Notes under the pieces: model-generated
The model's database searches: none
Told to the model about the DNA's origin: nothing
What the model saw: only the letters and a program-made list of their open reading frames with translations
Program-made: the position numbers and the translations under genes
From: Burkholderiales bacterium
GTDB taxonomy: Bacteria > Pseudomonadota > Gammaproteobacteria > Burkholderiales > Eutrophovitaceae
Length of the DNA: 64,000 nucleotides
Assembly: GCA_035560005.1 (NCBI GenBank)
Contig: DATMAN010000101.1
Location: 37,818-101,817 of the forward strand
Direction of reading: 5' to 3'
Shown here: positions 334 to 54,933 of the stretch, in pieces
Layout: the number at the start of each line of letters is the position of its first letter
Numbering within the stretch: the stretch's first letter is position 1

Positions 334-409
334 TGGGGTGGCCGATGGGATTCGAACCCACAACAACTGGAATCACAATCCAGGACTCTACCGTTGAGCT
401 ACGGCCACC
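334..409 (-). tRNA. tRNA-His (GTG)
   Basis: Hand-folded cloverleaf on the minus strand. Anticodon stem CTGGA/TCCAG with loop TTGTGAT, extra G-1 paired to discriminator C, T-loop GGTTCGAATCC, encoded CCA. Confidence 0.9.
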
Positions 410-444
410 ACTGAGACGGCCAGTCGGCTCGGCGCCGACGGGTT

Positions 445-521
445 TGGCGTGCCCGACAGGAATCGAACCTGTAACCCCCAGCTTAGAAGGCTGGTGCTCT
501 ATCCGATTGAGCTACGGGCAC
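445..521 (-). tRNA. tRNA-Arg (TCT)
   Basis: Acceptor GTGCCCG/CGGGCAC, anticodon stem CCAGC/GCTGG with loop CTTCTAA, T-loop GGTTCGATTCC, encoded CCA. Confidence 0.9.
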
Positions 522-545
522 GACTCCATTCCGGCCACCCGCTGT

Positions 546-622
546 TGGTCGGGGTGGAGAGATTTGAACTCTCGACATCCTGCTCCCAAAGCAGGCACGC
601 TACCAGGCTGCGCTACACCCCG
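546..622 (-). tRNA. tRNA-Pro (TGG)
   Basis: Acceptor CGGGGTG/CACCCCG, anticodon stem CCTGC/GCAGG with loop TTTGGGA, T-loop AGTTCAAATCT, encoded CCA. Confidence 0.9.
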
Positions 623-2730: not shown

Positions 2731-2820
2731 TGGCGGAGGCGGTGAGATTCGAACTCACGGAAGGGTTGCCCCTTCGCAGGTTTTCAAGACCTGTGCATTA
2801 AACCGCTCTGCCACGCCTCC
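2731..2820 (-). tRNA. tRNA-Ser (TGA)
   Basis: 90 nt with a long variable arm. Anticodon stem CAGGT/ACCTG with loop CTTGAAA, T-loop GTTCGAATC, acceptor GGAGGCG/CGCCTCC, encoded CCA. Confidence 0.9.
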
Positions 2821-8121: not shown

Positions 8122-9444
8122 TCACGGCCTTCCAACCGAGAAGTACTCGATGCCCGCCTCCCTGGCGAGCAGCGGGTCGTAAAGATTGCGGCCATCGAAC
8201 ACCACCGGCTGGGACAGCCGGCGCTTGATGTCCTCGAAATCGACCCCCCGAAACTCCTTCCACTCGGTGACGATGATCAGCGCATCGGCCCCGTCCAGCG
8301 CCCCGAGCGGCGAATCGGCGAACGACACCGCGGCTTCGCGCTGGAATATCCTCCGCCCTTCCGTCATCGCCACCGGATCGTACGCGCGCACCGTCGCGCC
8401 GCGGGTCAGCAGGCCGTTGACGATCACCCGGCTCGGCGCCTCGCGCATGTCGTTGGTGTTCGGCTTGAACGACAGGCCCCAGAGCGCAAAGCGCCGCCCG
8501 TCGAGGTGCTCGCCGAAACGCATGCGCACCTTGTCGAGCAGCCTCTGCTTCTGCGTGCGGTTGACTTTCTCCACCGCGTCGATAATGGTCAGCTGCATGC
8601 CGTATTCGCCCGCGGTATGCTGCAGCGCCTGGATGTCCTTGGGAAAACAAGATCCGCCATAACCGCAGCCGGCGTACAGGAAGTGATAGCCGATTCTCGG
8701 GTCCGAACCGATCCCCAGGCGAACCGCTTCGATGTTCGCGCCGAGCTTCTCCGCCAGGTTCGCCAGCTCGTTCATGAACGATATCCGCGTCGCCAGCATG
8801 GCGTTGGCCGCATATTTGGTCAGCTCGGCCGAACGCGTATCCATCACCATCAAGCGGTCGTGATTGCGGTTGATCGGCGCGTAGAGTTGGCGCATGAGCC
8901 GGATGGCCTGCTCGTCGCTGGTGCCGATGATGATTCGATCCGGACGCATGAAGTCCTCGACCGCGGCGCCCTCTTTGAGGAACTCCGGATTGGAAACGAC
9001 GCTGAAAGTCAACGCCTTGCCGCGCGCCTTGAGCTCGTCGTCGACCACCGCCCGCACCCGTTCCGCGGTGCCGACTGGCACCGTGGACTTGTCCACGATG
9101 ATCCGGTACTCGGTCATGTGCCGGCCGATGTTGCGCGCCGCGCTGAGCACGTAACGAAGATCCGCCGACCCGTCTTCGTCGGGCGGCGTGCCCACCGCGA
9201 TGAACTGCACCAGCCCATGGGCGACCGCCTCGTCCACCTCCGTGGTGAAGCGCAGCCGGCCGGCGGCCGCATTGTGGCGGATCAACCCCTCCAGTCCCGG
9301 CTCATAGATGGGCACGCCGCCATCCTTGAGCAGCTGAATCTTGGCGGCGTCCACGTCGAGGCACACCACCTCATGGCCGATCTCGGCCAGGCAGGCGCCG
9401 GACACCAGGCCCACATAGCCGGTGCCTACGATGGTCACTTTCAT
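8122..9444 (-). CDS. ugd: UDP-glucose 6-dehydrogenase
   Basis: [24 protein letters not shown]-binding N-terminus and catalytic GGSCFPKD motif. Confidence 0.92.
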
Positions 9445-10148
9445 CCAAGGCTCTCCGCGCTCTCGATTTCACGCACGATGCGCTCGACCACGGCGCGCGG
9501 ATCGGCCGCGCGCGTCACCGGCCGACCGATCACCAGATAGCTGGCGCCGGCCTCGATGGCGGCGCGCGGTGTCATCACGCGCTTTTGATCGTCCGCCGGA
9601 CCTTCCGCCAAGCGGATCCCGGGAGTCACGCGCAGGAAGGACTCATCGCAAGCCGTTCGCACCAGACGGGCTTCGTGAGCCGAGCACACGACTCCATCCA
9701 GCCCCGCCTGCCTGGCCAGCCGGGCGAGCCGCAGCGCGGCCTCGGCCGGCTCGCCGCTGATGCCCACCTCCGCGAGACCCTCTCGAGCCAGACTGGTCAG
9801 AATCGTCACGGCGACGAGTCTCGGCCGTCGATCCGCGCCGTCCAGCGCGGCGCGCGCCGCCTCCATCATCTCGCGCCCGCCGAGCGCGTGGACGTTGAGC
9901 ATCCACACGCCCAGCCCCGCCGCCGCCCGACAGGCTTGGGCGACGGTGTTGGGGATGTCGTGGAACTTCAGATCCAAAAAAACCGCGAAGCCGCGCCGCG
10001 CCAGCGTGGCCACCAGCGCGGGGCCGGCAGCCGTAAACAGCTCCTTGCCGACCTTGACGCGGCAAAGCTCCGGCGAGAGCCGTTCGCTCAAGGCAAGGGC
10101 GCGGGCCGCGTCGGGGAAATCCAGTGCGACGATGATTCGCGGTTCCAT
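9441..10148 (-). CDS. pyrF: Orotidine 5'-phosphate decarboxylase
   Basis: IIVALDF...KVGKELF...[12 protein letters not shown] motifs. Start ATG 10148 is internal to the artefactually long track ORF 9441..11330. Confidence 0.92.
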
Positions 10149-11323
10149 CAGGCGGCCAGTTCGCGCTCCTCGGAGCGGCGCGGCGGATACGTCTCCCAGC
10201 CGTTGCAGGCCGGGCAATGCCAGTAGAACTGACGCGCCTTGAACCCGCAGCTCTCGCAGCGATACATCGCCAGGCTCCTGGTGTGCTGATGCACGAGGTT
10301 CTTGATCATCTGCAGATCGTTTCGACGCTCTGCCGGAGCGTCGAGCAGTTGCGCCTCCAGCAGCTTGTCCAGCCCCAACAGCGTCGGATTGCGCGCCAGT
10401 TCCGCACGCACCAGACGGTAGGCCGGCTCGGCGCCTTCGTGCTCGAGCTCGCCCTGAAACGTGACGTTGAGCAGATCGAGCGATGGATAGCTGGCCAGAT
10501 AAGCGCGCAGCAGCCGCAACCCTTCTTCCGTCTTTCCGAGCTGACGATGCGCGGCGAGCAGCTTGTCGGCAACCAGCGCGAGGTAGGCGGGATTCTGTTG
10601 CTCGATACGCTTCCAGCACTCGATCGCACGCTCGAGATTGCCAAGGGTCAGTTCGATGTCCCCTTGCAGAATCGTCGCCCGGGCGCACTTGCGGTTGACC
10701 GAAAGCGCCTCCGCCAGATAGGAGCGCGCCGCATCCCAGCGCGAGCGGTTCATTTCGATGGCCGCAAGCTCGCAGTAATAGTTTGCGATGTCCTTCGCGC
10801 TGGAGCGCCCAGTGACGGCGTCCATCTTGCGCGAGGTGGCGATGGCTTTTTTCCAGTCCTTTTCCTGCTCGTAGATCTCGAGCAAGAACTTCAGTCCCTG
10901 CTGTTCGTACTGGGTGCCCTCGAGCTTGGCGAACAGCTCCTCGGCCCGGTCGAGCAGCCCGGCCTTGAGGTAGTCCTGCGCCAGCTCGTAGAGCGCCTGC
11001 AGGCGCTGCTCGCGCGCGAGATCGGGCCGGTCCAGCAGGTTCTCGTGCATGCGTATCGCGCGCTCGACCTCTCCGCGTCGGCGAAACAGGCTGCCTAGCG
11101 CGAAATGCAGTTCCACGGTCTGCGGATCGACCTTGACGAGTTCGATGAATGTCTCGATCGCCTTGTCCTGCTGCTCGTTGAGCAGGAAGTTCAGCCCCTT
11201 GAAGTACGACATCGGCAGTGCGCGCGACTCTGAGAGCAGCTGCTTGATGTCCACGCGTGCGGCGAGCCAGCCGAGCGCAAAGAACAGCGGAAAGCCGAGA
11301 AGCCACCAGAACTCGAATTCCAT
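10148..11323 (-). CDS. lapB: Lipopolysaccharide assembly protein LapB (YciM)
   Basis: N-terminal TM helix, TPR repeats and a C-terminal rubredoxin-like [21 protein letters not shown]. Start at ATG 11323 (MEFEFWW). Confidence 0.9.
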
Positions 11324-11336
11324 GCGACACCGACGC

Positions 11337-11600
11337 CTAGCGCGCCTCCTCGGATGAGTGGGCGCGAAGCTGCTTACGCAGTCGCACGCTTTCCCTGCGC
11401 TGGCGCAGCATCTTGCCCAGACCCGCGACCAGCCCAGTGGCCACGCCAAGCACGTATGCGACCAGCAAGACGAACACCAGAGGCACCTCCCACTGGCTGC
11501 CGAGGTAGAAACGGACAAGCACGGGATCGGTGTTCTTCGCGGCGAACCCGAGAATCACCAGGAATACGGCAAACCGCACAACCCACGCCACTATGCGCAT
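11337..11600 (-). CDS. lapA: Lipopolysaccharide assembly protein LapA (YciS, DUF1049)
   Basis: 87-aa two-TM protein immediately upstream of lapB, the conserved lapAB arrangement. Confidence 0.8.
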   Translation of the reverse strand: MRIVAWVVRFAVFLVILGFAAKNTDPVLVRFYLGSQWEVPLVFVLLVAYVLGVATGLVAGLGKMLRQRRESVRLRKQLRAHSSEEAR

Positions 11601-11711
11601 GACAGTCTACATCCGGTTCGTGTGCGCAATACCCCTGCGACCCAAAAAAAAGCGGCACCTCCGAGGACGGTGCCGCCGTGCTCCAATGCTGCTGGCCACC
11701 AGTACGCCGCG

Positions 11712-11999
11712 CTACTGCTTCTTGAGGTCCACGCGCTCGCGCAATTCCTTGCCGGCCTTGAAATGCGGCACATACTTCGCTGGCACGTGCACCTTGTCCC
11801 CGGACTTCGGATTGCGGCCGATGCGCGGAGGGCGGTAGTTCAGTCCGAAGCTCCCGAACCCGCGGATCTCGATGCGATGCCCCTGGGCCAGGCTCCTGGC
11901 CATCGCGTCCAGGATCATCTTCACCGCGAGTTCGGCGTCGCTCGCCACCAGCTGCGGGAAATGCGCAGCGAGCCTTGCGATCAGCTCCGACTTGGTCAT
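11712..11999 (-). CDS. ihfB: Integration host factor beta subunit
   Basis: MTKSELI...IEIRGFGSF...[26 protein letters not shown] is the canonical IHF-beta sequence. Confidence 0.95.
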
Positions 12000-28625: not shown

Positions 28626-28988
28626 GGGGGCGACCTGGTTTCGACGTGGGTCGCGAAGCAGTGCAGTGCATGCCAAGGTCCAGTCACCTTGTAAAACCGC
28701 TGGACAACGAATAGTCGCCAACGACGATCGTTACGCTCTGGCCGCCTAAACCCGGCTAGACTCCGCACCGGTTCGCTCACGGGCCGGGCTGGGCAACCAG
28801 CGGCGGAGCCATATACGTGAGATCGTGCCGGCTGGGGTTACTTCAGCCGGCATCAAATCCAAGGTAACTCGCTTCTTGTCGGCCCGTCGGTCGGCTGACA
28901 AGCGGCTAAATCAATCGGCCTGACTAAGCATGTAGGACTGCCTGCAGAGGGCTTGCGGACGCGGGTTCGATTCCCGCCGCCTCCACCA
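28626..28988 (+). ncRNA. ssrA: tmRNA (SsrA)
   Basis: The 5' end GGGGGCGACCTGGTTTCGACG pairs with the 3' end CGCCTCCACCA, including a G3-U70 pair. T-arm GGGTTCGATTCCC. The tag reading frame at 28717..28749 (GCC AAC GAC GAT CGT TAC GCT CTG GCC GCC TAA) encodes ANDDRYALAA. Confidence 0.95.
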
Positions 28989-39182: not shown

Positions 39183-39725
39183 CTACCTTCCGGGCAGCAT
39201 GCGCTGGAAAACGCCATCCTTGTCGACCAGCAGATGCTTCAACGCCGCGACCACGTGCACCACGATGAGTGCCATGAGCAGGACCGCCGTGGTGCCGTGG
39301 ATGCCTTGCAGAAAGTCGTAGATCTCCTTGTTCTCCGGTCCGAGCGGGGGAATCTTGAACAGGCCGAAGTAGGTCACGCCGAACTTCGTGAACTGGGAGG
39401 CGGAAAACCCGGCCAGCGGCATGACGATCAGGCACAGATACAGCAGCGCATGGCTGATCCTCGAGGCGCGTACTTGCCATCCCGGAACCGAAGGGGGTAA
39501 CGGGGGGGGAGGGTTCCTGTAGCGCCACCAGAGGCGCAACAGCACCACCAGCCCGGTCGTCAGTCCGATCGACTTGTGGAGGTTGTAGAAGAACGAACGT
39601 TCGGGTGTGCCGCGCGGGATGTCGGTCATGTAGAGACCGAGGCCGATCAACGTCAGGACCAGCACCGCGGTGATCCAGTGCAGCGCAATCGCCAAGGTCG
39701 AATAACGCTGCGCGTTCTCGGACAT
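39183..39725 (-). CDS. Cytochrome b561 family protein
   Basis: Four TM helices with conserved His residues (ALHWITAVLVL, HKSIG, HALLYL, HVVAALKH), as in CybB. Confidence 0.85.
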   Translation of the reverse strand: MSENAQRYSTLAIALHWITAVLVLTLIGLGLYMTDIPRGTPERSFFYNLHKSIGLTTGLVVLLRLWWRYRNPPPPLPPSVPGWQVRASRISHALLYLCLIVMPLAGFSASQFTKFGVTYFGLFKIPPLGPENKEIYDFLQGIHGTTAVLLMALIVVHVVAALKHLLVDKDGVFQRMLPGR

Positions 39726-42424: not shown

Positions 42425-44596
42425 TCAGAATGTGTAGCTGGCGGACAGTCCAAGCATGTAATTGCGCCCGGGTGCGGGCTCGTAATAGCGCCGGTTCGAT
42501 TCGTTGACGATGACCGAACCGACATACTCTTCGTCCAGCAGATTATCGATCCTCACGAACTGCGTCAGCCTCCAGCCGCCAGTGCGCTGTTCGAAACCGG
42601 CGCGCCAGTTGAAAATCGTATAGCTGTCCGCTGATTCGTCGTTAAGATCATTGGTGAACACTTCGTCTACCCACCGTCCCTCGATCGCTGTGGAAAAACC
42701 GCTCTCGGCATGCCGCCAGCGGACCTCCGCAAACGCGGTACTCTGCGGAATGCCCGGGATGCGATTGCCGGCGGGAACGGTTGCATTGGGGCCAGCCACC
42801 GAAGTGCAGAATCCAACACACGTTCCGAAGCTCGTGTCGAATTCGGCTTTGATGTACGTGTAGTTGGCGGCGGCCGAGAACCCGGCGGCAAGCTCGGAAT
42901 CCATCGCGATTTCGAAGCCTTGACGGGTCGTGCTCTCCACGTTCTGGAACACCGATCTGCCGCCCGAGTTGCTGAATACGACGATCTCGTTGTCGGTGTC
43001 GATCCTGAACAAGGCTGCGTTCAGGCGGGTGGCGTCGCCGATCAGCGCTTTCGCTCCTATCTCGAGATTGGTGCTCTCCGCCGGCTTGAGGTCGAAGTTG
43101 AACCCGTTGACCGTGGCGGAAGTCGACCGGTAGGCCAGCTCGGCGAAAGTCGGCGTCTCGAAACCCTTCCCGGCGTTGGCATAGACGTTGAGCGTGGGCG
43201 TCACTTTCAGGATCAGACCCGCGACCGGCGTGGTGTCGCGGAACTCGATGTTGCCGCTGTCGTCGCCGTTTGTGCCAGTGATGAAGAAATCCTCGGTCTT
43301 GAACTTCACGGAGGTGTGCCGAATGCCTGCATGAATGCTCCAGCGGTCGGTCAGATCGAGTTGAGTCTGCAGGAACTGATCGAAGTTGAAGACCGTGTTG
43401 TCCTCGTTGCGCACGAGCGCGCCGATGTTCCCGGCGTTATTGTCGAAAGCCCTGCGTGTTTCCTTCATTCGGTCGTAGTTCAGGCCCGCGGTAACCGCCA
43501 ACGCCATCCCTCCCACGGACATCCGGCGAGTCCATCGCCCGTCGACACCACCGAAGTCCCGATCGAGGTCAATCACCCCTCGGGGAGTGATGGAGAGAAA
43601 CTGCTGAACCGTCCGCTTGCCCGAATAGGCGAGCAGTCTGATGGAATCCTGTTCGCCGAGCCTGTGCTGCAATACCGTTCCTGCCTGCAGGTTTTCGATG
43701 CTCTTGCGGGTGTTCTGAGTCTCTGCATTGGTGCCAGCCTGGTCGCGATCCTGGGCCAGCTGCGTCTTGTCCAGACCGAGCGGGTCCTGGGTTTCGGGCT
43801 GGTTCAAGTAGTTCGTCACCAAGGTAATCTTCGTATCATCGCTTACGTCCAGACGCAGCTTTCCGTTGACCGTGTCGCGACGAGCAGCGCTGTGATCGCG
43901 GAAACCTTCTGTGGCGAAGCGCGCAGCCTCGATGACGTAGTTCACCAGCCCCATCTGCCCGCCCGCCTTCAGTCCCATGCGACTGGAGTCGAAGCTTCCG
44001 AACCACGCGGAACCGGTCAGCGTGTGTCGCTGGGGTCCATCCTCCGTGAACACGTTGATGACACCACCAGACGAATTCCCGTACAACGCAGAAAAAGGCC
44101 CGCGCATGACCTCCACGCTTCTGGCGGAGCTCAGGTCGATGTTCGCCGCCTGTCCCTGCCCGTCCGGCATCGTGAGAGGAATTCCGTCGGAGATTATCCT
44201 GATGCCCCGTACGCCGAAGGTCGAACGCGCGCCGAAGCCGCGGATCGAGATCTGCAGATCCTGGGCGTAGTTCTGGCGATTGTTGGCGACCACGCCGGGA
44301 GCCTTCACGAGTACTTCGGACAGATTGACTTGCGGCTGCTGTTCCTGGATCTGTTGCTGGCCGAAGGCGTCGACCGACACCGGCAAGTCGAAGGCGGACT
44401 GTTCGATGCGCGTCGGCGTTACCACGATCGGCGCAGTGCGCAGGGAATCCTCGGCCGTCTGTTGGGCAACCGCTGGGCATGGCGCGAGGCTGGCGGCAAT
44501 CAGCGCGATGAATACAGGACCACCGATCGATGCGGCTGACAGGTGACGAGCGGAGCCGCGCTTGGCGCGGCTTCCCTTCTGGTTGGCGGGGCTCAT
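42425..44596 (-). CDS. TonB-dependent receptor, YncD/PqqU-like (candidate PQQ receptor)
   Basis: ATG 44596, signal peptide and TonB box PIVVTPTR. The plug NRQNYAQDLQISIRGFGARSTFGVRGIRIISDGIPLTMPDGQGQ and the C-terminus EYVGSVIVNESNRRYYEPAPGRNYMLGLSASYTF resemble the YncD subfamily. The subfamily call is from memory and unverified. Confidence 0.85.
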   Translation of the reverse strand: MSPANQKGSRAKRGSARHLSAASIGGPVFIALIAASLAPCPAVAQQTAEDSLRTAPIVVTPTRIEQSAFDLPVSVDAFGQQQIQEQQPQVNLSEVLVKAPGVVANNRQNYAQDLQISIRGFGARSTFGVRGIRIISDGIPLTMPDGQGQAANIDLSSARSVEVMRGPFSALYGNSSGGVINVFTEDGPQRHTLTGSAWFGSFDSSRMGLKAGGQMGLVNYVIEAARFATEGFRDHSAARRDTVNGKLRLDVSDDTKITLVTNYLNQPETQDPLGLDKTQLAQDRDQAGTNAETQNTRKSIENLQAGTVLQHRLGEQDSIRLLAYSGKRTVQQFLSITPRGVIDLDRDFGGVDGRWTRRMSVGGMALAVTAGLNYDRMKETRRAFDNNAGNIGALVRNEDNTVFNFDQFLQTQLDLTDRWSIHAGIRHTSVKFKTEDFFITGTNGDDSGNIEFRDTTPVAGLILKVTPTLNVYANAGKGFETPTFAELAYRSTSATVNGFNFDLKPAESTNLEIGAKALIGDATRLNAALFRIDTDNEIVVFSNSGGRSVFQNVESTTRQGFEIAMDSELAAGFSAAANYTYIKAEFDTSFGTCVGFCTSVAGPNATVPAGNRIPGIPQSTAFAEVRWRHAESGFSTAIEGRWVDEVFTNDLNDESADSYTIFNWRAGFEQRTGGWRLTQFVRIDNLLDEEYVGSVIVNESNRRYYEPAPGRNYMLGLSASYTF

Positions 44597-44717
44597 GTTC
44601 TCTTTCTTTCTGCTTGGTTCGGGTCTTCGTTCTGAAACGCCCGGGGACTGCGCCCCGGCGGGCGGGCCCACTTCAAGTCCGGCTCGGGCGGCGGCGCTGC
44701 ATCCGGCCCGGGCCGCC

Positions 44718-44750
44718 AAAAAAAAAGGCTGCTCGAAAGCAGCCTTTTTC
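44718..44750 (-). terminator. Stem-loop with flanking A- and T-runs after pqqA-2 (bidirectional terminator/attenuator shape)
   Basis: AAAAAAAAA-GGCTGCT-cgaa-AGCAGCC-TTTTT. On the minus strand it lies 13 nt after the pqqA-2 stop. Confidence 0.75.
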
Positions 44751-44763: not shown

Positions 44764-44835
44764 TTAGCGGTTGGCGATATACATCGTGACTTCAAAGCCA
44801 AAACGCATTTCGCTGTATTCGGGTTTGGTCCACAT
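44764..44835 (-). CDS. pqqA: Coenzyme PQQ precursor peptide PqqA (second, inverted copy)
   Basis: Hand translation [23 protein letters not shown] has the PqqA E-x3-Y signature. A GAGAGGAG SD lies upstream. Too short for the ORF track. Confidence 0.88.
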   Translation of the reverse strand: MWTKPEYSEMRFGFEVTMYIANR

Positions 44836-44997: not shown

Positions 44998-45642
44998 TCA
45001 TGGGTCTATAAGACCTTCCCGCATTGCGATGATGGCCAGTTCCGCCGAGTTGGACGCGCCGAGCTTCTGCTTGATGTTGTAGAGGTGGGTGCCGACCGTG
45101 CGGGGGCTCAACGACATCACCTCCGCGATCTCCTGCACCGACTGGCCCCTGGCCAGCGCCAGAAAGACCTTGAACTCCTTCTCGCTGAGCGTGTCGAGCG
45201 GGTTGCGGTTCTTGGACAGCTGCTGAACCGCCAGTTGCTGCGCGATCTCGGGCTCCAGGAAAGTCTTGCCCTGATGGACCTGGCGGATCGCCTGGATCAG
45301 CGCTTCGGGCGCGCTGCGCTTTGTGAGATAGCCGGCCGCGCCCGCTTTCAGGACGCGCCTCGCGTGCATCGCGTCTTCGTGCGCGGAGAGAACCAGAATT
45401 CTCGCGGCCGCATCCTTGGCCAGGATGCGGTCGATAGCCTCCAGACCACCAATGCCCGGCATCGAAATGTCCATCACGGTCACGTCCGGCTTCGCCTCGG
45501 TGAAACGGCGAACCGCCTCCTCACCGCTTTCCGCTTCGGCGACGACCCTGATGTCCGACGACCCTTCCAGCAGCAGGCGAAATCCCATTCTCACCACTGC
45601 ATGGTCGTCCACGAGCATCACGTTGATGGTTGCGCCGGTCAT
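44998..45642 (-). CDS. NarL/FixJ-family response regulator (REC + LuxR-type HTH)
   Basis: VMLVDDH...DVTVMDISMPG receiver motifs with a C-terminal GerE HTH (LSEKEFKVFLALARGQSVQEIAEVMSLSPRTVGTHLYNIKQKLG). Confidence 0.9.
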   Translation of the reverse strand: MTGATINVMLVDDHAVVRMGFRLLLEGSSDIRVVAEAESGEEAVRRFTEAKPDVTVMDISMPGIGGLEAIDRILAKDAAARILVLSAHEDAMHARRVLKAGAAGYLTKRSAPEALIQAIRQVHQGKTFLEPEIAQQLAVQQLSKNRNPLDTLSEKEFKVFLALARGQSVQEIAEVMSLSPRTVGTHLYNIKQKLGASNSAELAIIAMREGLIDP

Positions 45643-47399
45643 TCATTCACCTCTGCCCGTTCGGGCGCGGCGCGCGAAGCCAGCGGAATCACCGCTCGAA
45701 CGCTCACACCCTTCCCGGGCTCGCCGCAGACTTCCAGCCTGCCCCCGAGCCCCTGCACCCTCTCCCTCATGCCGATCAGGCCGAATCGGGTGGCTTCCAG
45801 CTCGTTGCGTTGCGACAGGCCCTTGCCGTTGTCGCTCACCGTGACGCTCACCGCATCCTGGCCGGATTCCTCGGTCTCGCGCTTCACCGTGATCTCGGCG
45901 CGCGTGGCCTGCGCATGCCGCACGATATTGGTCAGGCACTCCTGCACCATTCTGTAGACGGTGATGTTGACCGATTCGTCGAGCGCGTCGAGTTCCCCGC
46001 TCATGTGCAGCTCGCAATCGATCTCCGGGTGGCGTTCGCGCCAGTTGGCCACCGCCGCGCGCAGCGTATCTCCCAAGCCCAAATGGTCCAGGGTGCTTGG
46101 CCGCAACTGCCGGATCATGCCGTGGACCACATCGTAGATGTGGCTCGCCACCGACACGATCGTGCGGGCGTTGGCATGGGTTTCAGGAGAGTCCCCCGTC
46201 CGGTTCGCGATGGCGGTGCCGATGGTCTTGATCGCCGTGACGCACTGGCCGAGTTCGTCATGCAGCTCGCGCGCGATGCTGCGGCGCTCCTCCTCGATGC
46301 GCGCCTGGATGATCTGGGTAAGTCTGCGGTTGTGCTCCAGCTCGCGCTCCGCCGCCTGCATCCGCTTGTGCTCGGTGATGTCGCGCAGCGCACAGATCTC
46401 GCCGATGACTGCATCGGAACCGGGATCGATCAGCGGTGCGGCGGACAACGCGACGTCGATCAGGCGTCCAGTCTTGGTCATGCGCTGGGTTTCGAAGTTC
46501 TCGACGCGCTCCCGGCGCCGGATCACAGCCAGATTTTCCGCGATCTCGTTCTCCAGGCCCGGCGGCGTCAGCAGCGTGGCGGAGCGTCCCAGGATCTCAT
46601 CCGCGGAGTACTCGAAGAGCTGCGCCGCGGCGGCATTCCAGAACGACACTCGTCCCTCGAGGTCGTGGATCATGATCGCGTCGCTCGCCTGCTGCGCGAC
46701 CAGGGCGAGCCGGCGGTTCTCGTCCATCGCTTCCTCCAACGCGGCGGCCATGCGGTTGAAGGTGTGGCTGATGGATGCGAATTCGGGAAGCGTGTAGTCG
46801 GGCAGCCGCACGTCGAAGCGTCCGCGTTCCATTTCCGACAGGCCGCCGAGAATCGAGCGCAGCGGCCGCAGCGAACGTCCCAGGAGCCAGAACACCAGGG
46901 CATTGAGCAGCACGAAGAAGCCCAGCACGATCCAGAGAAAGTTCTTCGTGTCGTCCCACGCATCGAGGATCGACCGGGATGCGTCGGGCGTGATCACCAC
47001 GGTGCCGCCCGGCAGGTTGAGGCGAAACTCGTCGAGCTTCGGTCCGACCAGCCTTGCGAACCAGTCGGGCGCCCAGCGTCCGGCCTTGTAGATCGGAGGC
47101 GGCGACTCGTAGATCAATCTGTCGTGCTCGTCGTAGAGCCGGATCTCGTTGGCCCGCACCCGGCCGACGTGCCGCAGGAACGCGAGCAACGCCTGGTTGC
47201 GCGATTCGGCCGTCTCACGGTGAACTCCGGCAATGACCGTCTCCATGAGCTGCACGGTCACCCGGGTTCCCGCCTCCATCTCCTCTCGGATCGAGCGGCG
47301 CATGTCTTGCAGGACCACGTGTCCGGCGCCCACGGTGAAGGCGATCATCACCAGCGTGATCACCAGGTTGATGCGAAAACGCAGGCTCATGCGCTTCAT
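45639..47399 (-). CDS. Sensor histidine kinase (2 TM, periplasmic domain, HAMP, PAS, HisKA_3, HATPase_c)
   Basis: H-box RSIARELHDELGQ, plus a PAS segment and N/G boxes. ATG 47399 (MKRMSLRFRINLV...) overlaps the pip stop, and its own stop overlaps the regulator start (ATGA). Confidence 0.88.
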   Translation of the reverse strand: MKRMSLRFRINLVITLVMIAFTVGAGHVVLQDMRRSIREEMEAGTRVTVQLMETVIAGVHRETAESRNQALLAFLRHVGRVRANEIRLYDEHDRLIYESPPPIYKAGRWAPDWFARLVGPKLDEFRLNLPGGTVVITPDASRSILDAWDDTKNFLWIVLGFFVLLNALVFWLLGRSLRPLRSILGGLSEMERGRFDVRLPDYTLPEFASISHTFNRMAAALEEAMDENRRLALVAQQASDAIMIHDLEGRVSFWNAAAAQLFEYSADEILGRSATLLTPPGLENEIAENLAVIRRRERVENFETQRMTKTGRLIDVALSAAPLIDPGSDAVIGEICALRDITEHKRMQAAERELEHNRRLTQIIQARIEEERRSIARELHDELGQCVTAIKTIGTAIANRTGDSPETHANARTIVSVASHIYDVVHGMIRQLRPSTLDHLGLGDTLRAAVANWRERHPEIDCELHMSGELDALDESVNITVYRMVQECLTNIVRHAQATRAEITVKRETEESGQDAVSVTVSDNGKGLSQRNELEATRFGLIGMRERVQGLGGRLEVCGEPGKGVSVRAVIPLASRAAPERAEVNE

Positions 47400-48376
47400 C
47401 GGCGGACCCGCCCGCGCATGTCGTCCGTGGCGCGACGCAATGCACCGGCGATCAAAGGATCCAGCGCCGAGTGTCCGCCGTTCTCGACCATCCTGAGCTC
47501 GGCGTTCGGCAGCCGTCGCGCCAGCTCGGCCGCCGCAAGGGGAGGACACACCATGTCCAGCCGCCCCTGGACGAGGATGGCCGGCACATCACCCACTCTC
47601 CAGGCACGCTCCAGCAGCTCGTTGTCGCGAAGGAAGCAACCGTTGGCCAGGAAGTGCAGCTGAATGCGCGCGCGATGCAGCGCGTCCGCAGCGCCGGAAG
47701 CCGAAGGCATCGGTGCACTGCCGCTGCCCAGGCGCATGACCGCCTCTTCGTAGCCGACCCAAGCCTGGGCTGCGCGGGTGTGTGTTTGCATGTCGGGATG
47801 ATTGACCAGAGCATGATACCGCGCGAGCAACCCCTCGCTGCACTCCGCGGTCGCGGTCAGCAGCCGCCGGGCGCAGGGGACGAACCTTCGCAGTCCGTCG
47901 ACGTACCACCGTATTTCCGTCTCGGTTCCCAGAAAAACGCCGCGCAGCACCAGGCCGGCGACACGCTCGGGATGGGTCTCAGCGTAGGCGAGCGCCAGCG
48001 TAGCGCCCCATGAACCACCGAACAGCAGCCACCTTTGCACGCCCAGATGAATCCGCAACCGCTCGATATCCGCCACCAAGTGCCAGGTCGTGTTCTGCTC
48101 GGTGCATCCCGCAGGCAGCGATTGACCGCAGCCGCGCTGATCGAACAGCACGATCCGGTAGAAGGCGGGATCGAAGTACTGGCGCTGATGGGGACGGATA
48201 TGGCTTCCGGGACCACCGTGCAGGAAGAGGACGGGAAATCCTTCCCGATTGCCGCATTGCTCGACATGAAGCGAATGCAAAGCATCGACCGCCAGGCGCT
48301 CGATGCGATAAGGCTCCAGGGGCGGATACAGCGCGCTTTGCTGCTCGGTACCAGCCACGGGGCTGGAGGGAATCAC
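47396..48376 (-). CDS. pip: Proline iminopeptidase (prolyl aminopeptidase, S33 alpha/beta hydrolase)
   Basis: LYPPLEPY, VEQCGN..G.PVLFLHGGPG and nucleophile elbow GGSWGATLALAY are canonical Pip motifs. Confidence 0.88.
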   Translation of the reverse strand: MIPSSPVAGTEQQSALYPPLEPYRIERLAVDALHSLHVEQCGNREGFPVLFLHGGPGSHIRPHQRQYFDPAFYRIVLFDQRGCGQSLPAGCTEQNTTWHLVADIERLRIHLGVQRWLLFGGSWGATLALAYAETHPERVAGLVLRGVFLGTETEIRWYVDGLRRFVPCARRLLTATAECSEGLLARYHALVNHPDMQTHTRAAQAWVGYEEAVMRLGSGSAPMPSASGAADALHRARIQLHFLANGCFLRDNELLERAWRVGDVPAILVQGRLDMVCPPLAAAELARRLPNAELRMVENGGHSALDPLIAGALRRATDDMRGRVRR

Positions 48377-49761
48377 GAATCCTGGAGGCGAAAGACGATC
48401 GGCACCGTGACGGTGAGCTCCCGACCGCGCAGCCCTTCCGGGGCCTGCGGGAGCGGAGTGGCCCGACGCACCATTTCCATCGCCTCTCTGTCCAGCACCT
48501 CACGACCGGAACTCTTGGCGAGCGCGATCTCGGTCACCCTTCCGTCTGCCGCGATTCTCAACTGAACTTCCGTGGTGCCCTCCCAACCGCGGCGCTGGGC
48601 GATGACCGGGTACTTCTGATAGCGCTTGATCTGGGTGGACAGTTGCTGGCTGTACGCCACCGTCAATTCGCGCGGGATCGATCGAGACGGCACTGCCTTC
48701 GGTACCGGCGGCGCAGGGGCCGGGACGACGGGTCCTGGTCTGGGCGCAGGAGGCGAGACCGTCGGCAGGGTCGGCGTTGCCGGAACGGGCGACGACAGCG
48801 TCGGCTCCGCCGTCCGCGGGCGCACAACGGGCATCGGCGCCGGGAGGGTGGGGGGTGTGGCAGCGGCGACGTTCACCGCTGGCGGAGCAGGCCGCTCGAT
48901 GCTCGGCTCCACGCGCGCCGGCAACTGAGACAGCGGCTGCGGTTCGGACCGCGTGGCGAGCGGCGCGAGGCGGGGCGCGGGCTGCGCCGGCGGTTGTACG
49001 ACCGGGGTGACGTTGACCGCCGGCGGAGCAGGCCGCTCGATGCTCGGCTCCACGCGGGGGGGCAACTGCGCAACGGGCCGCGGTTCGGTCCGCTCCACGG
49101 CCGGCGCCGGCCGTGGAGCCGGTTGAGGTGGTGCCAAGTCGCGGACGACAGGTGCCACCGGCTGCGGCTGTGGGTCGACTCGCGCCGTAGGCTGGGCAAC
49201 CGGGGGAGGCTCGAGCCGAGCGCCCGGAGGCGGCGGAAGGACAGCCGCCGGCGCTGGAGGGATGGGCTGGGGCTGCTCAGGCAGGGCGACGCGCTGTTCC
49301 GGTTGAGGTTCGGGGCGAGCGCTGACGAGGGGCTCGGGCGACGGTGGTACTGCACGCGGAGGTGACGGGGTCAGCTCGGCCCGAGTCGGGGCCGGCAGCT
49401 CTGGGTCAGGCGGCGCAAGCACGGGCTGCGGCTGCTCGATCACGGGCTCCGGACGCGAAATCAGCGGTTCGATCGGGCGCGGCTCAGGCGCAACGACGGC
49501 TGGCTGTCTGAGCGGCTCGGGAACCGGTTGCGGCGCTGGCCGCTGCTCCCGCCGCACGGGTTGCTCCCGGGGGATCAGCTCGACGCTCAGGACCTTCGGG
49601 GGCGGCTCGATGCGGACCGAGCGGAACCCGGGGACCACAGCGATCAGCAGCGCGTGGATCAGGACGGAGGCAGCTAGCGCGACCTGGAACGGTCGCTCCC
49701 GATACCACTGGCCAAACGGATCGGGGAGAAACAAGCCCCTGTCGAGCGCCACGTCAGACAT
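48373..49761 (-). CDS. tonB: TonB-family energy transducer with unusually long proline-rich spacer
   Basis: N-terminal TM helix (VALAASVLIHALLIAVVP), a ~330-aa Pro-rich region, and a C-terminal TonB_C domain (YPVIAQRRGWEGTTEVQLRIAADGRV...). ATG 49761 is preferred over the track's TTG 49779. Confidence 0.85.
   Translation of the reverse strand: MSDVALDRGLFLPDPFGQWYRERPFQVALAASVLIHALLIAVVPGFRSVRIEPPPKVLSVELIPREQPVRREQRPAPQPVPEPLRQPAVVAPEPRPIEPLISRPEPVIEQPQPVLAPPDPELPAPTRAELTPSPPRAVPPSPEPLVSARPEPQPEQRVALPEQPQPIPPAPAAVLPPPPGARLEPPPVAQPTARVDPQPQPVAPVVRDLAPPQPAPRPAPAVERTEPRPVAQLPPRVEPSIERPAPPAVNVTPVVQPPAQPAPRLAPLATRSEPQPLSQLPARVEPSIERPAPPAVNVAAATPPTLPAPMPVVRPRTAEPTLSSPVPATPTLPTVSPPAPRPGPVVPAPAPPVPKAVPSRSIPRELTVAYSQQLSTQIKRYQKYPVIAQRRGWEGTTEVQLRIAADGRVTEIALAKSSGREVLDREAMEMVRRATPLPQAPEGLRGRELTVTVPIVFRLQDS
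48868..49094. repeat. Imperfect tandem duplication (141-nt period) inside the tonB spacer
   Basis: An identical 35-nt core GGCGGAGCAGGCCGCTCGATGCTCGGCTCCACGCG occurs at 48881..48915 and 49022..49056. It encodes RVEPSIERPAPPAVNV twice. Confidence 0.85.
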
Positions 49762-49811
49762 GTGACTCAGCCTATGCAAGCCTTTGACGTGAGTAAAGTT
49801 TCGCGGCGAAA

Positions 49812-49987: not shown

Positions 49988-50059
49988 ATGTGGACCAAAC
50001 CCGAGTACAGCGAAATGCGCTTTGGCTTTGAAGTCACGATGTACATCGCCAACCGCTGA
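49988..50059 (+). CDS. pqqA: Coenzyme PQQ precursor peptide PqqA
   Basis: Hand translation [30 protein letters not shown] lies upstream, and the gene sits immediately upstream of pqqBCDE. Too short for the ORF track. Confidence 0.93.
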
Positions 50060-50078
50060 TCGCGGGCGGGTAAACCGA

Positions 50079-50108
50079 CGAAAGCCCCTGTAGGGGCTTT
50101 CGTTTTTT
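50079..50108 (+). terminator. pqqA-pqqB intergenic stem-loop (attenuator/terminator)
   Basis: CGAAAGCCCC-tgta-GGGGCTTTCG followed by TTTTTT, 22 nt before the pqqB ATG. Confidence 0.8.
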
Positions 50109-50130
50109 CACCACGCCGCCGACAACAGTC

Positions 50131-51045
50131 ATGAGAATAGGAGTGCTCGGCTCAGCCGCCGGTGGGGGATTCCCCCAGTGGAACTGCAATTGCCGCAACT
50201 GCGATGGGGTCCGCAAGGGAACGATCCGCGCCCGGCCGCGCACGCAATCGTCGATCGTCCTTTCCGCCGACTCCGTCAACTGGGTGCTGTTCAACGCTTC
50301 CCCGGACCTGCTGTACCAGTTCCGCAGCTTTCCGCAGCTGCAGCCTGGACGGGCGATACGGGATACGGCAGTGCGCTCGATCGTTCTGATGGACGCGCAG
50401 ATCGACCACACCACCGGGCTGCTGATGCTGCGCGAAGGCAAGCCGCTGGAGATCTACTGCACGGACATGGCGCGCGAAGACCTCACCAGCGGCAATCCGC
50501 TGTTCAATATCCTTCAGCACTATTGCGGCGTAAACTGGCATCAGATTCCGACCTATCCGGGCAACCGTTTCGCGGTGCTGGGCGCCGAGGAGCTGTACTT
50601 CACGGCCGTGCCTCTGAAAAGCAAGGCACCGCCCTACTCCCCTCACCGCGACAACCCGCACGAGGGAGACAACATCGGCATGCGCATCTTGGACCCGCGC
50701 ACCGGAAAGGTGCTGTTCTACGCGCCGGGCCTGGGCGAAATCGAGCCGCATCTCCAGCCGTTCCTCGAGGAAGCCGACTGCCTGATGGTGGACGGGACGT
50801 TCTGGACCGACGACGAGATGATCCGGCTGGGCATTTCCGGCAAGCGCGCACGCGACATCGGACATCTTCCGCAATCGGGCCCCGGCGGCATGATCGAGGT
50901 GCTGCGCCCGCTCAAGGCGGAGCGCAAGATCCTGATCCACATCAACAACACCAATCCCATCCTGGACGAGGATTCGCAGGAGCGCCGTCAGCTCGAGGCG
51001 GCCGGAATCGAGGTTGCGTGGGATGGCATGGAAGTGGTTCTCTAG
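50131..51045 (+). CDS. pqqB: PQQ biosynthesis protein PqqB (MBL-fold)
   Basis: [24 protein letters not shown] is the canonical PqqB N-terminus. 304 aa. Confidence 0.95.
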
Positions 51046-51074: not shown

Positions 51075-51794
51075 ATGGGTGCCGCAGAGCAACTGCCTTG
51101 GAGCCGGGACGAGTTCGAACAGCAACTGCGCGCAAAAGGCAAGCGCTACCACATCTATCACCCGTTTCATATCGCCATGAACAGCGGGCAATGCACTCGC
51201 GAGCAGGTGCAGGGCTGGGTGTACAACCGCTTCTACTACCAGATCAGCATTCCGATCAAGGACGCGGCGATCCTGTCCAACATGCCGGACCGGGAGCAGC
51301 GCCGGCAGTGGATCCAGCGCATCATCGATCACGACGGCACCGAGGGCGAGGAAGGCGGCATCGAGGCGTGGCTGCGGCTCGGGGAAGCCTGCGGCTTGAA
51401 ACGCGAGGATGTGACGTCCTTGCGCTACGTACTCCCAGGCGTGCGCTTCGCTGTGGATGCCTACGTGAACTTCGCGCGGCGGGCGCCGTGGCAGGAAGCG
51501 GTGTGCTCTTCGCTCACCGAGCTGTTTGCTCCGGAAATCCACCAGAAGCGGCTCGATAACTGGCCGCAGCACTATCCCTGGATCGAAGCGGAAGGTTATG
51601 CGTACTTCCGCAAGCGGCTCTCCGAGGCGCGGCGCGACGTGGAGCACGGACTGCAGGTCACGCTCGACTATTTCCGGACGCGGCGCGATCAGGAACGCGC
51701 GCTCGATATCCTGCAGTTCAAACTGGATGTATTGTGGACGATGCTCGACGCCATGCAGATCGCCTATGGCATCGGGCCCGCGCAACGCCAATGA
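51075..51794 (+). CDS. pqqC: Pyrroloquinoline-quinone synthase PqqC
   Basis: YHIYHPFH...[10 protein letters not shown]...RIIDHDG are canonical PqqC motifs. ATG 51075 is internal to the artefactual track ORF 50178..51794. Confidence 0.95.
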
Positions 51795-52072
51795 GTGTCA
51801 TCAGCGAAGACATGGTGCCCGTGCTGGCAAGGCACTACCGCTTCCAGTTCGAACCGGCGCAGCAAGCCTACGTCCTTCTCTACCCGGAAGGCATGGTCAA
51901 GCTCGGTGCCAGCGCGGGCGAAATCATGAAGCGGGTGAATGGCACTGCGACCGTCTCGAGCATCATCGCCGACCTGCAGGCGGCCTATCCGGGCGTCGAC
52001 CTGAGGGCCGACGTCATCGATTTCCTGGAGCATGCACATGGAAAAGGCTGGATCCACGCCAAACGGCCCTAA
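51791..52072 (+). CDS. pqqD: PQQ biosynthesis peptide chaperone PqqD
   Basis: 93 aa with a PqqD fold sequence ([37 protein letters not shown]). ATG 51791 overlaps the pqqC stop (ATGA). Confidence 0.92.
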
Positions 52073-53201
52073 GCCGCCGCTGTGGCTGCTGGCGGAACTG
52101 ACGTACCGCTGCCCGCTGCATTGCGTGTTCTGCTACAACCCGGTCGACTACGCGACCTACGGCACCGAACTGTCCACCGAGGACTGGATGCGCGTGCTCA
52201 GGCAAGGCCGCGAGCTGGGCGCGACGCAGCTTGGCTTCTCCGGCGGTGAACCGTTGATGCGCGACGACCTGGAAGCGCTGGTCGCCGAGGCGCGCAAGCT
52301 CGGCTACTACTCCAACCTCATCACCTCGGGAGTGGGCCTGAACGAAAAGCGCATCGCAGCTTTCAAGGAAGGCGGGCTCGATCACATCCAGGTCTCGTTC
52401 CAGGATTCCACCCGCGAGATGAACGACTTCCTGTCCAGCACCCGCACCTTCGAGCTGAAGCAGCGGGTCGCCAGACTGGTCAAGCGGTACGACTACCCGA
52501 TGGTGCTCAACGTCGTGCTGCACCGGCTCAACATCGACCACGTGCAGCAGATCCTGGAGATGGCCGAGCAGCTCGAAGCGGAGTACGTCGAACTCGCCAA
52601 CACGCAGTACTACGGCTGGGCGTACGTCAACCGCGACCAGCTGCTGCCCAGCCGGGAACAGTTGCAGCGCGCCGAGGAGGTGACCAACCGGTTTCGCGAA
52701 CGCGTCGGAAACAAGATGAAGATCTACTTCGTCGTGCCCGACTATTACGAAAACCGGCCCAAGGCGTGCATGAACGGCTGGGGCGCCGTGTTTCTGACCG
52801 TGACCGCAGACGGCTTGGCGCTTCCCTGCCACGAGGCCCGAATGCTGCCGGGGCTGAGTTTCCCGAATGTCCGCGAACACGATCTGCGCTGGATCTGGTA
52901 CGACTCGCCCGGATTCAACGTCTACCGTGGAGACGGCTGGATGAAGGAGCCCTGCCGCAGCTGTCCGGAAAAGGTGAAGGACTTCGGCGGCTGCAGATGT
53001 CAGGCGTATTTGCTCACCGGAGATGCCGCCAACGCCGATCCGGTCTGCGACAAATCGCCTTTCCATGGACTGGTCACCCAGGCGGTGCAGCGCGCCCAGA
53101 AGCCGGCCCCCGCGGTGTCTGTAAAACCGGTCATTCTGTATCGAGACGACAAGAACTCACGCAGCCTCGCCGGCCGCAAGGACAACGCTCCGGTCGCATG
53201 A
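52032..53201 (+). CDS. pqqE: PqqA peptide cyclase PqqE (radical SAM/SPASM)
   Basis: PLWLLAELTYRCPLHCVFCYNP radical-SAM motif and C-terminal SPASM cysteines (CRSCPEKVKDFGGCRCQAY). The start may be 52032 or 52038. Confidence 0.95.
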   Translation: MHMEKAGSTPNGPKPPLWLLAELTYRCPLHCVFCYNPVDYATYGTELSTEDWMRVLRQGRELGATQLGFSGGEPLMRDDLEALVAEARKLGYYSNLITSGVGLNEKRIAAFKEGGLDHIQVSFQDSTREMNDFLSSTRTFELKQRVARLVKRYDYPMVLNVVLHRLNIDHVQQILEMAEQLEAEYVELANTQYYGWAYVNRDQLLPSREQLQRAEEVTNRFRERVGNKMKIYFVVPDYYENRPKACMNGWGAVFLTVTADGLALPCHEARMLPGLSFPNVREHDLRWIWYDSPGFNVYRGDGWMKEPCRSCPEKVKDFGGCRCQAYLLTGDAANADPVCDKSPFHGLVTQAVQRAQKPAPAVSVKPVILYRDDKNSRSLAGRKDNAPVA

Positions 53202-54145
53202 ATGCGCCTCAGCCCGTCGACACGCGCGCCGCGATCCGCGCCCAAGGTCTGACCAAGCGCTACGGCGAGCTGCTCGCGGTAGACGGGCTCGACCTGGATA
53301 TTCCCTCGGGCCAGTTCTTCGGCCTGCTCGGTCCGAACGGCTCCGGCAAGACGACCACCATCCACATGCTCGCCACGCTGATCCGGCCCACACGCGGCAC
53401 GGCACAGGTTGCGGACTTCGACGTGGTGCGCCAGGCAACGCGCGCGCGCGAGGCCATCGGGCTGGTCTTCCAGGAATCTGCGCTGGATCGCACGCTCACC
53501 GTCGCCGAGAACCTGCGCTTCGCCGGATTCCTTCAAAACCTGCCGGCGCGCATCATCGCGGAGCGCAGCCGCGAGCTGCTCGAGCTGTTTGGTCTGGGTG
53601 AACGGCGCGACAGCCCCGTTGCCGCCTTGTCGGGTGGCATGCGCCGTGCGCTCGACATCGTGCGCGGCGTGCTGCACGAGCCCAGGATCCTGTTTCTGGA
53701 CGAACCGACCATCGGGCTCGATCTGCCCAACCGGCGCAGGATCTGGCGCTTCATCGAGCGCCTGCGCGCCCGCACCGGCATGACGGTTCTGCTCACCACT
53801 CACTACCTGGAAGAAGCCGATGGCTGCGATCGCGTGGCCTTCATCCGCGCCGGGAAACTGGTGGAGACCGGCGCGCCGTCCGAACTGGTCCAGCGCCTCG
53901 GCAGTCGCATCGTGGAGGTCGAGGCGCAGGATCTGGAAGCGCTCATGGGTTTCCTGGAACCCAGGCTCGGCCCGGGGCTGCGCGACGGGGAAATCGCCAT
54001 GTTTCGCTGCCGGGAGCAGGAGCTCCACGCGCTCGCCGGGCTGCAGGCCGATATCGGCACCAAAGCCTCGGCGTGGCGGGTGCGGCGCCCGAACCTGAAC
54101 GATGTCTTTCTCTGGGTCGCGGCGGGGAAGGCCTTGGCCCGATGA
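53198..54145 (+). CDS. ABC transporter ATP-binding protein (ABC-2/DrrA-like exporter type)
   Basis: Walker A GPNGSGKTT, signature LSGGMRRAL and Walker B ILFLDEPTIGLD. ATG 53198 overlaps the pqqE stop (ATGA). Confidence 0.9.
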   Translation: MNAPQPVDTRAAIRAQGLTKRYGELLAVDGLDLDIPSGQFFGLLGPNGSGKTTTIHMLATLIRPTRGTAQVADFDVVRQATRAREAIGLVFQESALDRTLTVAENLRFAGFLQNLPARIIAERSRELLELFGLGERRDSPVAALSGGMRRALDIVRGVLHEPRILFLDEPTIGLDLPNRRRIWRFIERLRARTGMTVLLTTHYLEEADGCDRVAFIRAGKLVETGAPSELVQRLGSRIVEVEAQDLEALMGFLEPRLGPGLRDGEIAMFRCREQELHALAGLQADIGTKASAWRVRRPNLNDVFLWVAAGKALAR

Positions 54146-54933
54146 AACTGCGGCCGGTATACGCCGTCCTCGAGCGCGAGGTCGTGCGCATGTTTCGCCA
54201 GCGGGGGCGGCTGCTGTCCGCCATGGTGCGTCCCTTGATCTGGCTGTTCGTGATCGGCGCCGGTTTCGGAGCGATCATGGATCAGGCGCGCGGAGTGCCG
54301 TATCAGTACTTTCTGGTCCCAGGGGTGCTGGGCATGACCATGTTGTTCGGCGCCATGCTTGCTGCGCTGACGACGGTCTACGACAAGGAATCCGGAGTGA
54401 TGAGAATGATGATCGTCGCGCCGCTGCCCCACGCGTGGATCGTGATCGCGAAACTGCTTTCCGCGGCGCTCGCCGGAATCGTCCAGGCGTTGCTGCTGCT
54501 CGTCGTGCTCGCGCTGCTCGGCTATCTCGAGCCCCGGACCGACTGGATTCTGCTTTCGGTCGCGCTGGTGACGACCTCGCTGGCGTGCGGAGGCATCGGC
54601 ATGCTGACCGCCTCGTTCACCCGCACGCTGGACAACTTCGCGGCAATCATGAACTTCGTGATCTTCCCGGTGTTCTTTCTGAGCGGTTCGCTCTACCCGG
54701 TGCACGATCTGCCGCAGGCGCTGCGCTGGATCGCCACCCTCAACCCCTATACCTACGGTGTCGATCTTCTGAAGCACGCCACCCTGCCGCGCGTGGCCGA
54801 CTTCGGCGCAGGATTCGATCTTGCCGTGCTGGCGGGCTTCACGCTGGCTGCGCTGGCAGCCGCGAGCTGGCGCTTCTCGCAGGAGTCGGCCTACGAGCCG
54901 ATGATCCACGTGCTCGCCGGCAGGCGCGGCTAG
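54142..54933 (+). CDS. ABC-2 type transporter permease
   Basis: 263 aa with six predicted TM helices and an ABC-2 membrane-domain pattern. ATG 54142 overlaps the ATPase stop (ATGA). Confidence 0.85.
   Translation: MKLRPVYAVLEREVVRMFRQRGRLLSAMVRPLIWLFVIGAGFGAIMDQARGVPYQYFLVPGVLGMTMLFGAMLAALTTVYDKESGVMRMMIVAPLPHAWIVIAKLLSAALAGIVQALLLLVVLALLGYLEPRTDWILLSVALVTTSLACGGIGMLTASFTRTLDNFAAIMNFVIFPVFFLSGSLYPVHDLPQALRWIATLNPYTYGVDLLKHATLPRVADFGAGFDLAVLAGFTLAALAAASWRFSQESAYEPMIHVLAGRRG

Follow-up and report, generated by a model that had tools for sequence, protein, structure and literature searches.

How pyrroloquinoline quinone (PQQ) leaves the cytoplasm has been a standing question since PqqB, formerly regarded as the carrier, was recognised as an enzyme. 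It is raised again by a 64 kb stretch of DNA, hereafter the window, which belongs to a metagenome-assembled genome (MAG) of a Burkholderiales bacterium and in which the PQQ biosynthesis genes pqqB, pqqC, pqqD and pqqE are followed by the genes of an ATP-binding cassette (ABC) ATPase and an ABC-2 permease. A preliminary description of this DNA took the pair for a candidate for the missing PQQ export step. Of this proposal the linkage to pqq genes and the assignment to a class of exporters stood, while its reach has to be narrowed from a general step to one restricted to a lineage. According to the data described below, the pair is somewhat more probably than otherwise an accessory exporter of the PQQ pathway of this lineage, which moves PQQ to the periplasm; both the substrate and the outward direction of transport we infer.

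The preliminary description also proposed a survey of how often such ABC-2 pairs co-occur with pqqE. Related loci, 170 altogether, were gathered by means of permease motifs only, in a collection blind to gene context. A genome scan with these permease-only motifs, which took one genome per species, registered 80 loci, and the set was extended from its most divergent member, L077 (53% identity), by protein searches, ten annotated contigs and a metagenome scan. Loci with enough upstream DNA were considered assessable (n = 146, including the window itself), and in 137 of them, in many flanking contexts, pqqE was found directly upstream of the ATPase gene. By source, this arrangement was registered in 72 of 73 loci from the genome scan, in 60 of 62 from the metagenome scan and in 4 of 10 annotated loci that had been picked, to which the window is added. 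Moreover, the whole pqqBCDE block lies directly 5′ of the ATPase gene in every assessable locus of the genome scan but one. Permeases found in metagenomes are only 47–62% identical to that of L077, and marine (TARA) and sediment sources appear among the names of their contigs. The link of the pair to PQQ biosynthesis is strongly supported.

Sequence reading placed both junctions of the pair exactly where the preliminary description had them, as ATGA overlaps. The TGA codon of pqqE (53199–53201) overlaps the ATG codon of the ATPase gene (53198–53200), and the TGA codon of the latter (54143–54145) overlaps the ATG codon of the permease gene (54142–54144). A third ATGA overlap, at position 51791, joins pqqC to pqqD, and the overlap between pqqD and pqqE is 41 nucleotides long. 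Four-nucleotide overlaps are common in bacterial operons, and taken alone an overlap says little; it is the conservation of the coupling between pqqE, ATPase and permease across loci that exceeds chance. For 73 loci the spacing between pqqE and the ATPase gene was a 4-nucleotide overlap in 26 cases and a 16-nucleotide gap in 23, and it did not exceed 26 nucleotides in approximately 60. The spacing between the ATPase and permease genes of the same number of loci was −4 or −1 nucleotides in 51.

That the genes upstream of the pair form a PQQ biosynthesis operon follows from a PqqA peptide with the E-x3-Y motif and from PqqB–PqqE, all of which exceed the equivalog cut-offs of NCBIfam and are encoded on one strand. 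The start of pqqC was taken as the first ATG ahead of the segment to which the family model aligned. As tblastn searches have shown, the pqqA gene (copy 1 in Table 1) is conserved upstream of pqqB across related loci. A pqqA gene followed by a hairpin is the usual attenuator arrangement, and folding of the RNA between pqqA and pqqB in the window gave a hairpin of −25.4 kcal/mol (z = −3.46), in which a 12-bp stem is followed by UUUUUU. A scan of the operon for σ70 promoters and terminators gave nothing useful and missed this hairpin, which was confirmed later by folding. The preliminary description treated everything from pqqA to the permease as one tightly coupled unit. This holds from pqqB to the permease, but pqqA is set off by the strong hairpin with its U-run; therefore the coupled unit starts at pqqB, and pqqA stands upstream of the attenuator.

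Many loci of the genome scan share with the window a wider synteny, which includes the regulator, the kinase, prolyl aminopeptidase, TonB, the pqq genes, the ABC pair and peroxiredoxin, and because this synteny is extensive many Burkholderiales loci are not independent observations. Other flanks were also registered. In one variant a histidine kinase, a response regulator, an aminopeptidase and TonB are found upstream, with either a peroxiredoxin or a TonB receptor downstream; in marine TARA contigs a PQQ dehydrogenase precedes the cluster; and in four loci (L086–L088 and L101) the gene order is xoxF-xoxJ-xoxG-pqqABCDE-ATPase-permease-M16 peptidase. A crude count gave about 26 distinct clusters of downstream neighbours. 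Since the linkage to pqqE is kept while the flanks change, it is not an accident of the window genome. In the xoxF-xoxJ-xoxG clade the ABC pair sits inside the cluster, between pqqE and the peptidase gene. The latter lies directly 3′ of the permease gene and encodes in L086 (positions 8938..11745) a double M16 protein of 935 residues, similar to fused PqqF and PqqG; it is also present in L087, L088 and L101.

Which transporter does the pair encode? Translation of the ATPase gene gave a complete set of motifs (Walker A GPNGSGKT, Q-loop VFQES, signature LSGGMRR, Walker B ILFLDEP and H-loop TTHY), as well as a C-terminal LNDVFL of the DrrA type, which resembles LDEVFL. The permease was modelled with AlphaFold2 (predicted local distance difference test, pLDDT, 75; predicted template modelling score, pTM, 0.74), and the top Foldseek matches of this model were KpsM, ABCH, ABCG (ABCG25, ABCG5/8), TarG, Wzm and NosY, all with a probability of 1.0 and a template modelling score of about 0.6. 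Insect ABCH and plant and human ABCG are among the matched membrane domains of type V exporters, and a sequence search of the PDB with the permease found only distant matches, again to KpsM and ABCH. A Pfam scan of the window genes revealed no periplasmic binding-protein gene adjoining the pair, the neighbours of which are pqqE, an unassigned open reading frame (ORF) and peroxiredoxin. Judging by the ATPase motifs, the separate permease with six predicted transmembrane helices and the lack of a binding protein, the pair is a DrrAB-like ABC-2 (type V) transporter, and the exporter architecture named in the preliminary description is borne out by Pfam, motifs, fold match and neighbouring genes.

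The subfamily is less easily named. The best curated match of the ATPase was TIGR01188 drrA (286.4 bits with a cut-off of 312.45), and the permease scored 149.5 bits with TIGR01247 drrB, the cut-off of which is 223.05; filing under the DrrAB subfamily was rejected on these scores. DrrAB, which confers resistance to daunorubicin and doxorubicin in Streptomyces peucetius, likewise combines a separate ATPase with a six-helix ABC-2 permease, has no binding protein and is encoded in the very cluster that makes the planar quinone it exports. The pair differs from it in both subfamily scores, in the Gram-negative host, in belonging to a cofactor rather than an antibiotic cluster and in its destination, which would be the periplasm. 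The CcmAB heme exporter of system I for cytochrome c maturation is also composed of an ABC ATPase and an ABC-2-like permease and supplies the periplasm with a cofactor that is made in the cytoplasm, as is proposed for the pair. This assignment was rejected as well: the permease matches Pfam CcmB only weakly (30 bits versus 127 for ABC2_membrane), NCBIfam gave no CcmA or CcmB match, there are no ccm neighbours, and the partners CcmC, CcmD and CcmE are absent. Since the scores for PedB/PedC (see below) are insufficient too, the pair is by its sequence an orphan, outside every curated family cut-off that was tried.

Some of these scores bring up an alternative, in which a transporter of the PedBC/LutEF type moves a metal (Ln3+ or Ca2+) or its chelate for quinoprotein maturation and is regulated together with the pqq genes, since the holo-enzyme needs both. 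PedB/PedC of Pseudomonas putida and LutE/LutF of Methylorubrum extorquens are, like the pair, of the ABC-2 type and stand beside genes of PQQ enzymes, in their case PQQ-dependent dehydrogenases. The corresponding models, TIGR03864 and TIGR03861, are described as the ABC transporter of a “PQQ-dependent alcohol dehydrogenase system”. TIGR03861 PedC is the best curated match of the permease (181.8 bits), and the ATPase matches TIGR03864 with 203 bits. The Ped and Lut systems have been implicated experimentally in lanthanide import, PedA1A2BC and LutAEF being required for entry of lanthanides into the cytoplasm; TonB and TonB-dependent receptors are encoded near the pair, and xoxF clusters adjoin it in the four loci mentioned above. 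However, both scores are below the curated cut-offs (241.35 and 302.25, respectively), the ATPase scores higher with DrrA, and the same two cut-offs are not reached by the L077 orthologues or by the ten nearest clusters at 50% identity, which means that these neighbours are not PedC members either. Two partners accompany the Ped and Lut systems, namely a binding protein of the periplasm (PedA1/LutA) and a β-propeller protein (PedA2/LutB); neither the operon of the window nor its immediate surroundings contain such genes, and the same applies to the annotated loci L086–L090. Where a xoxJ-like binding-protein gene occurs upstream, as in some loci, it is part of the xoxFJG unit. Finally, Ped and Lut genes reside in a dehydrogenase cluster and the pair in a biosynthesis operon. 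Insufficient scores together with missing partner genes led us to reject filing under PedBC/LutEF, and metal transport appears quite improbable.

Several observations weigh against an exporter of PQQ and have to be considered together. By hidden Markov model score the characterised permease family closest to the pair is PedC/LutF, for which evidence points to import of lanthanides and not to export of PQQ. The subfamily is narrow, comprising about 90 clusters at 50% identity with E ≤ 1e-30 among 1.84 billion, and all related loci come from MAGs or metagenomes of uncultured Proteobacteria. The carriers include MAGs of Pelomicrobium, Rhodocyclaceae and Hydrogenophilales. To our knowledge, the pqq operons of the classical producers Klebsiella, Pseudomonas, Acinetobacter, Gluconobacter and Methylorubrum contain no such pair, and for this reason it cannot be the general missing export step and is at best the dedicated solution of one lineage. 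E. coli supplied with pqq biosynthesis genes alone releases PQQ; therefore a dedicated pump is not obligatory. Charged residues specific for the subfamily, which could serve the carboxylates of PQQ, were sought, and the conserved positions proved to be mostly common to the nearest clusters outside it, so that no binding signature specific for PQQ emerged. Lastly, nine loci carry the pair with no pqqBCDE nearby, and five of them lack pqqA as well. A neighbour-joining tree of 169 permeases and the ten nearest 50%-identity clusters, which is without bootstrap support, showed the 169 as monophyletic with respect to these clusters and the nine as a single clade nested among pqqE-linked ones. Because of this nesting, ancestral linkage to pqq genes with one later relocation would be the simplest reading of the clade.

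In these nine loci (L077, L081–L085, L089, L091 and L092) the pair is divergent from a two-component system of the σ54 type, and cytochrome b561 and a YkuD protein are usually encoded downstream, while in four of the nine pqqA with its hairpin is kept directly 5′ of the ATPase gene. The latter are gammaproteobacterial loci with the order pqqA-hairpin-ATPase-permease and no pqqBCDE within 8–10 kb (L077, 7541..9545; L082, 8865..10807; L091 and L092); all four have a σ54-type response regulator and kinase divergently upstream and the cytochrome b561 and YkuD genes downstream.

Two further readings of the pair were considered. It may be a DrrAB-like pump of a generic kind, which expels a drug, a lipid or some other compound, has no role specific for PQQ and accompanies the pqq operon merely by descent. 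The daunorubicin-resistance subfamily as the top curated match of the ATPase, the functioning of the σ54-associated clade without pqqBCDE nearby and the non-independence of syntenic Burkholderiales loci are in line with this possibility. Mere descent, however, hardly agrees with an adjacency that survives divergence of the permease to approximately 50% identity and many changes of flank in soil, freshwater, sediment and marine samples, with the tight junctions retained across loci and with the clade in which the pair is enclosed between pqqE and the PqqF/G-like M16 peptidase. We regard a generic pump as very unlikely.

Alternatively, a pump of the PQQ pathway may carry something other than PQQ, such as reactive quinone intermediates, shunt products or fragments derived from PqqA, and serve self-protection instead of cofactor delivery. 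The linkage to pqqE speaks for such a pump to the same extent; the four loci reduced to pqqA, ATPase and permease connect it with the peptide no less than with the cofactor, and pumps of the DrrAB type are classically devices of self-resistance. On the other hand, cytoplasmic peptidases would dispose more simply of a leftover peptide, the intermediates known so far are bound to enzymes as substrates of PqqB and PqqC, both of them cytoplasmic, and a need for export is known only for PQQ itself. Another cargo is therefore unlikely, and PQQ remains the substrate that we prefer.

If the pair does export PQQ, its operation can be imagined as follows. An ABC-2 exporter of the homodimeric type (type V, DrrAB-like), accessory to the PQQ pathway, would be produced in fixed proportion to PqqB–PqqE, since transcription would read through the attenuator behind pqqA and translation would be coupled to that of pqqE. 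Its cargo, a planar tricarboxylate o-quinone, is set free by PqqC in the cytoplasm, and ATP hydrolysis would drive the finished PQQ through the inner membrane into the periplasm. There it would be bound by apo-quinoproteins, and molecules that leak out might be recaptured by an outer-membrane receptor similar to PqqU, which is encoded nearby. By analogy, a cluster carrying the pump for its own product matches what is found with DrrAB and with further exporters encoded inside biosynthetic clusters. An extended version of this scheme, in which the subfamily exports PQQ as a dedicated transporter of the inner membrane, has always been part of the pqq operon in a broad range of uncultured Beta- and Gammaproteobacteria, and forms a complete make-export-recapture module together with the PqqU-like receptor and extra pqqA copies, is possible and is offered here tentatively.

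The pqqE-linked ABC-2 pair is not mentioned in the literature searched. Recent papers do not go beyond proposals or assign no protein to the step (PMC7391723, PMC12124388), and in this respect the earlier statement that no dedicated PQQ exporter is established agrees with our search, which found none named. In M. extorquens AM1, META1p2359 was proposed as PQQ exporter since it is essential for growth on methanol (PMC7391723). It resembles the pair in being an ABC transporter without a binding protein, but its description as a fused ATPase-transmembrane protein encoded away from pqq genes sets it apart. Elsewhere PQQ is stated only to be transported to the periplasm, with reference to a candidate screen in Gluconobacter, and among PQQ transporters structure and function have been proved only for the TonB-dependent importer PqqU, also called YncD (PMC12124388). 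Being an import protein of the outer membrane and of a different class, PqqU complements the export step at the inner membrane and does not solve it. If PQQ export by the pair is true, this would make it the first protein identified for the step from cytoplasm to periplasm in PQQ biogenesis. The pair also shows that an accessory part of the pqq operon went unnoticed, hidden so far by the uncultured state of its carriers. Both the type of transporter and the logic of a pump inside a cluster are familiar, while a PQQ exporter conserved within pqq operons would be new. A module of two genes almost invariably joined to pqqE is also a specific and clonable candidate, which can be tested in PQQ-producing strains of E. 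coli and, if the pump works, could raise industrial PQQ titres.

Table 1. Features of the pqq region, with positions counted from the first letter of the window
Feature	Position	Strand	Basis of assignment
TonB-dependent receptor, PqqU-like	42425..44719	−	NF041535 TonB_rec_PqqU, 678 bits, E 1e-203
pqqA copy 2, identical peptide	44764..44835	−	tblastn, 100% identity over 23 residues
LuxR-type response regulator	44998..45642	−	Pfam; conserved beside pqq cluster in 47 of first 80 loci
HAMP-PAS-HisKA_3 histidine kinase	45639..47549	−	Pfam; conserved beside pqq cluster in 47 of first 80 loci
Prolyl aminopeptidase	47396..48376	−	TIGR01249, 300.6 bits, cut-off 259.75
TonB-family protein, divergent from pqqA	48373..49779	−	PF03544 TonB_C, 66.7 bits; TIGR01352 also matches
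pqqA copy 1	49988..50059	+	Direct translation; precursor peptide [23 protein letters not shown], conserved E-x3-Y motif
Terminator/attenuator-like hairpin with U-run, pqqA-pqqB interval	50077..50109	+	RNA fold
pqqB	50131..51045	+	TIGR02108, 424.6 bits, cut-off 245
pqqC	51075..51794	+	TIGR02111, 375.8 bits, cut-off 240
pqqD	51791..52072	+	NF002535, 114.2 bits, cut-off 101
pqqE, radical SAM/SPASM enzyme	52032..53201	+	TIGR02109, 536 bits, cut-off 381
ABC ATPase, 315 residues, DrrA-like	53198..54145	+	PF00005, 104 bits, cut-off 25
ABC-2 permease, 263 residues	54142..54933	+	PF01061 ABC2_membrane, 127 bits, cut-off 26.9

Judging by the encoded proteins, the region upstream of the operon together with the operon itself looks like an island of PQQ production and trafficking. 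A second pqqA copy is followed by its own terminator-like hairpin (−28.6 kcal/mol by RNA folding, then a U-run) and has counterparts at the corresponding place of about 35 related loci. Two or three tandem copies of pqqA were observed 5′ of pqqB in L143, L153 and L156, which are sediment and marine metagenome contigs with the same arrangement of pqq and ABC-2 genes. Directly downstream of the second copy in the window, 5 kb from the operon, lies the gene of the PqqU-like receptor, the score of which is below the equivalog cut-off of 1200 bits, with 192 bits for the next best family. In L078 and L142 genes of this kind (45–47% identity) follow the permease gene at a distance of 2–3 kb, and in L023 a PqqU-like fragment, 69% identical, follows the second pqqA. 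Of the first 80 loci, 50 share with the window a prolyl aminopeptidase gene immediately ahead of the pqq cluster, as do many loci from metagenomes. Because no pqqF/G-type peptidase was found in the window, this enzyme could be a candidate for PqqA processing. There is no gene of a PQQ-dependent dehydrogenase in the 64 kb either, and client enzymes of the host were thus not seen.

Downstream of the permease gene the unassigned ORF and the peroxiredoxin gene are both on the opposite strand. This ORF (55085..~55560, −) has no Pfam match and ends with a His-rich tail, GHVHGPHGHHH. A cytochrome b561 gene (Ni_hydr_CYTB) occupies positions 39183..39725 (−) of the window, and in L077, L081, L082, L085, L163 and L165, the contexts of which otherwise differ, such genes again lie close to the ABC-2 pair or to a PqqU-like receptor. 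Further away the window contains an iron-uptake block, composed of a TonB receptor (31232), an FTR1-cytochrome c fusion (33501), an ABC importer (36420–39142) and a ferritin-like gene (30009). A transfer-messenger RNA gene (220.6 bits) and four tRNA genes were also detected, the coordinates listed for RNA genes being 28626..28988 (+), 337..622 (−) and 2734..2820 (−). The rest of the window is housekeeping, with gyrA, serC, pheA, tyrA, rpsA, dksA, Cu/Zn superoxide dismutase and aat/ate.

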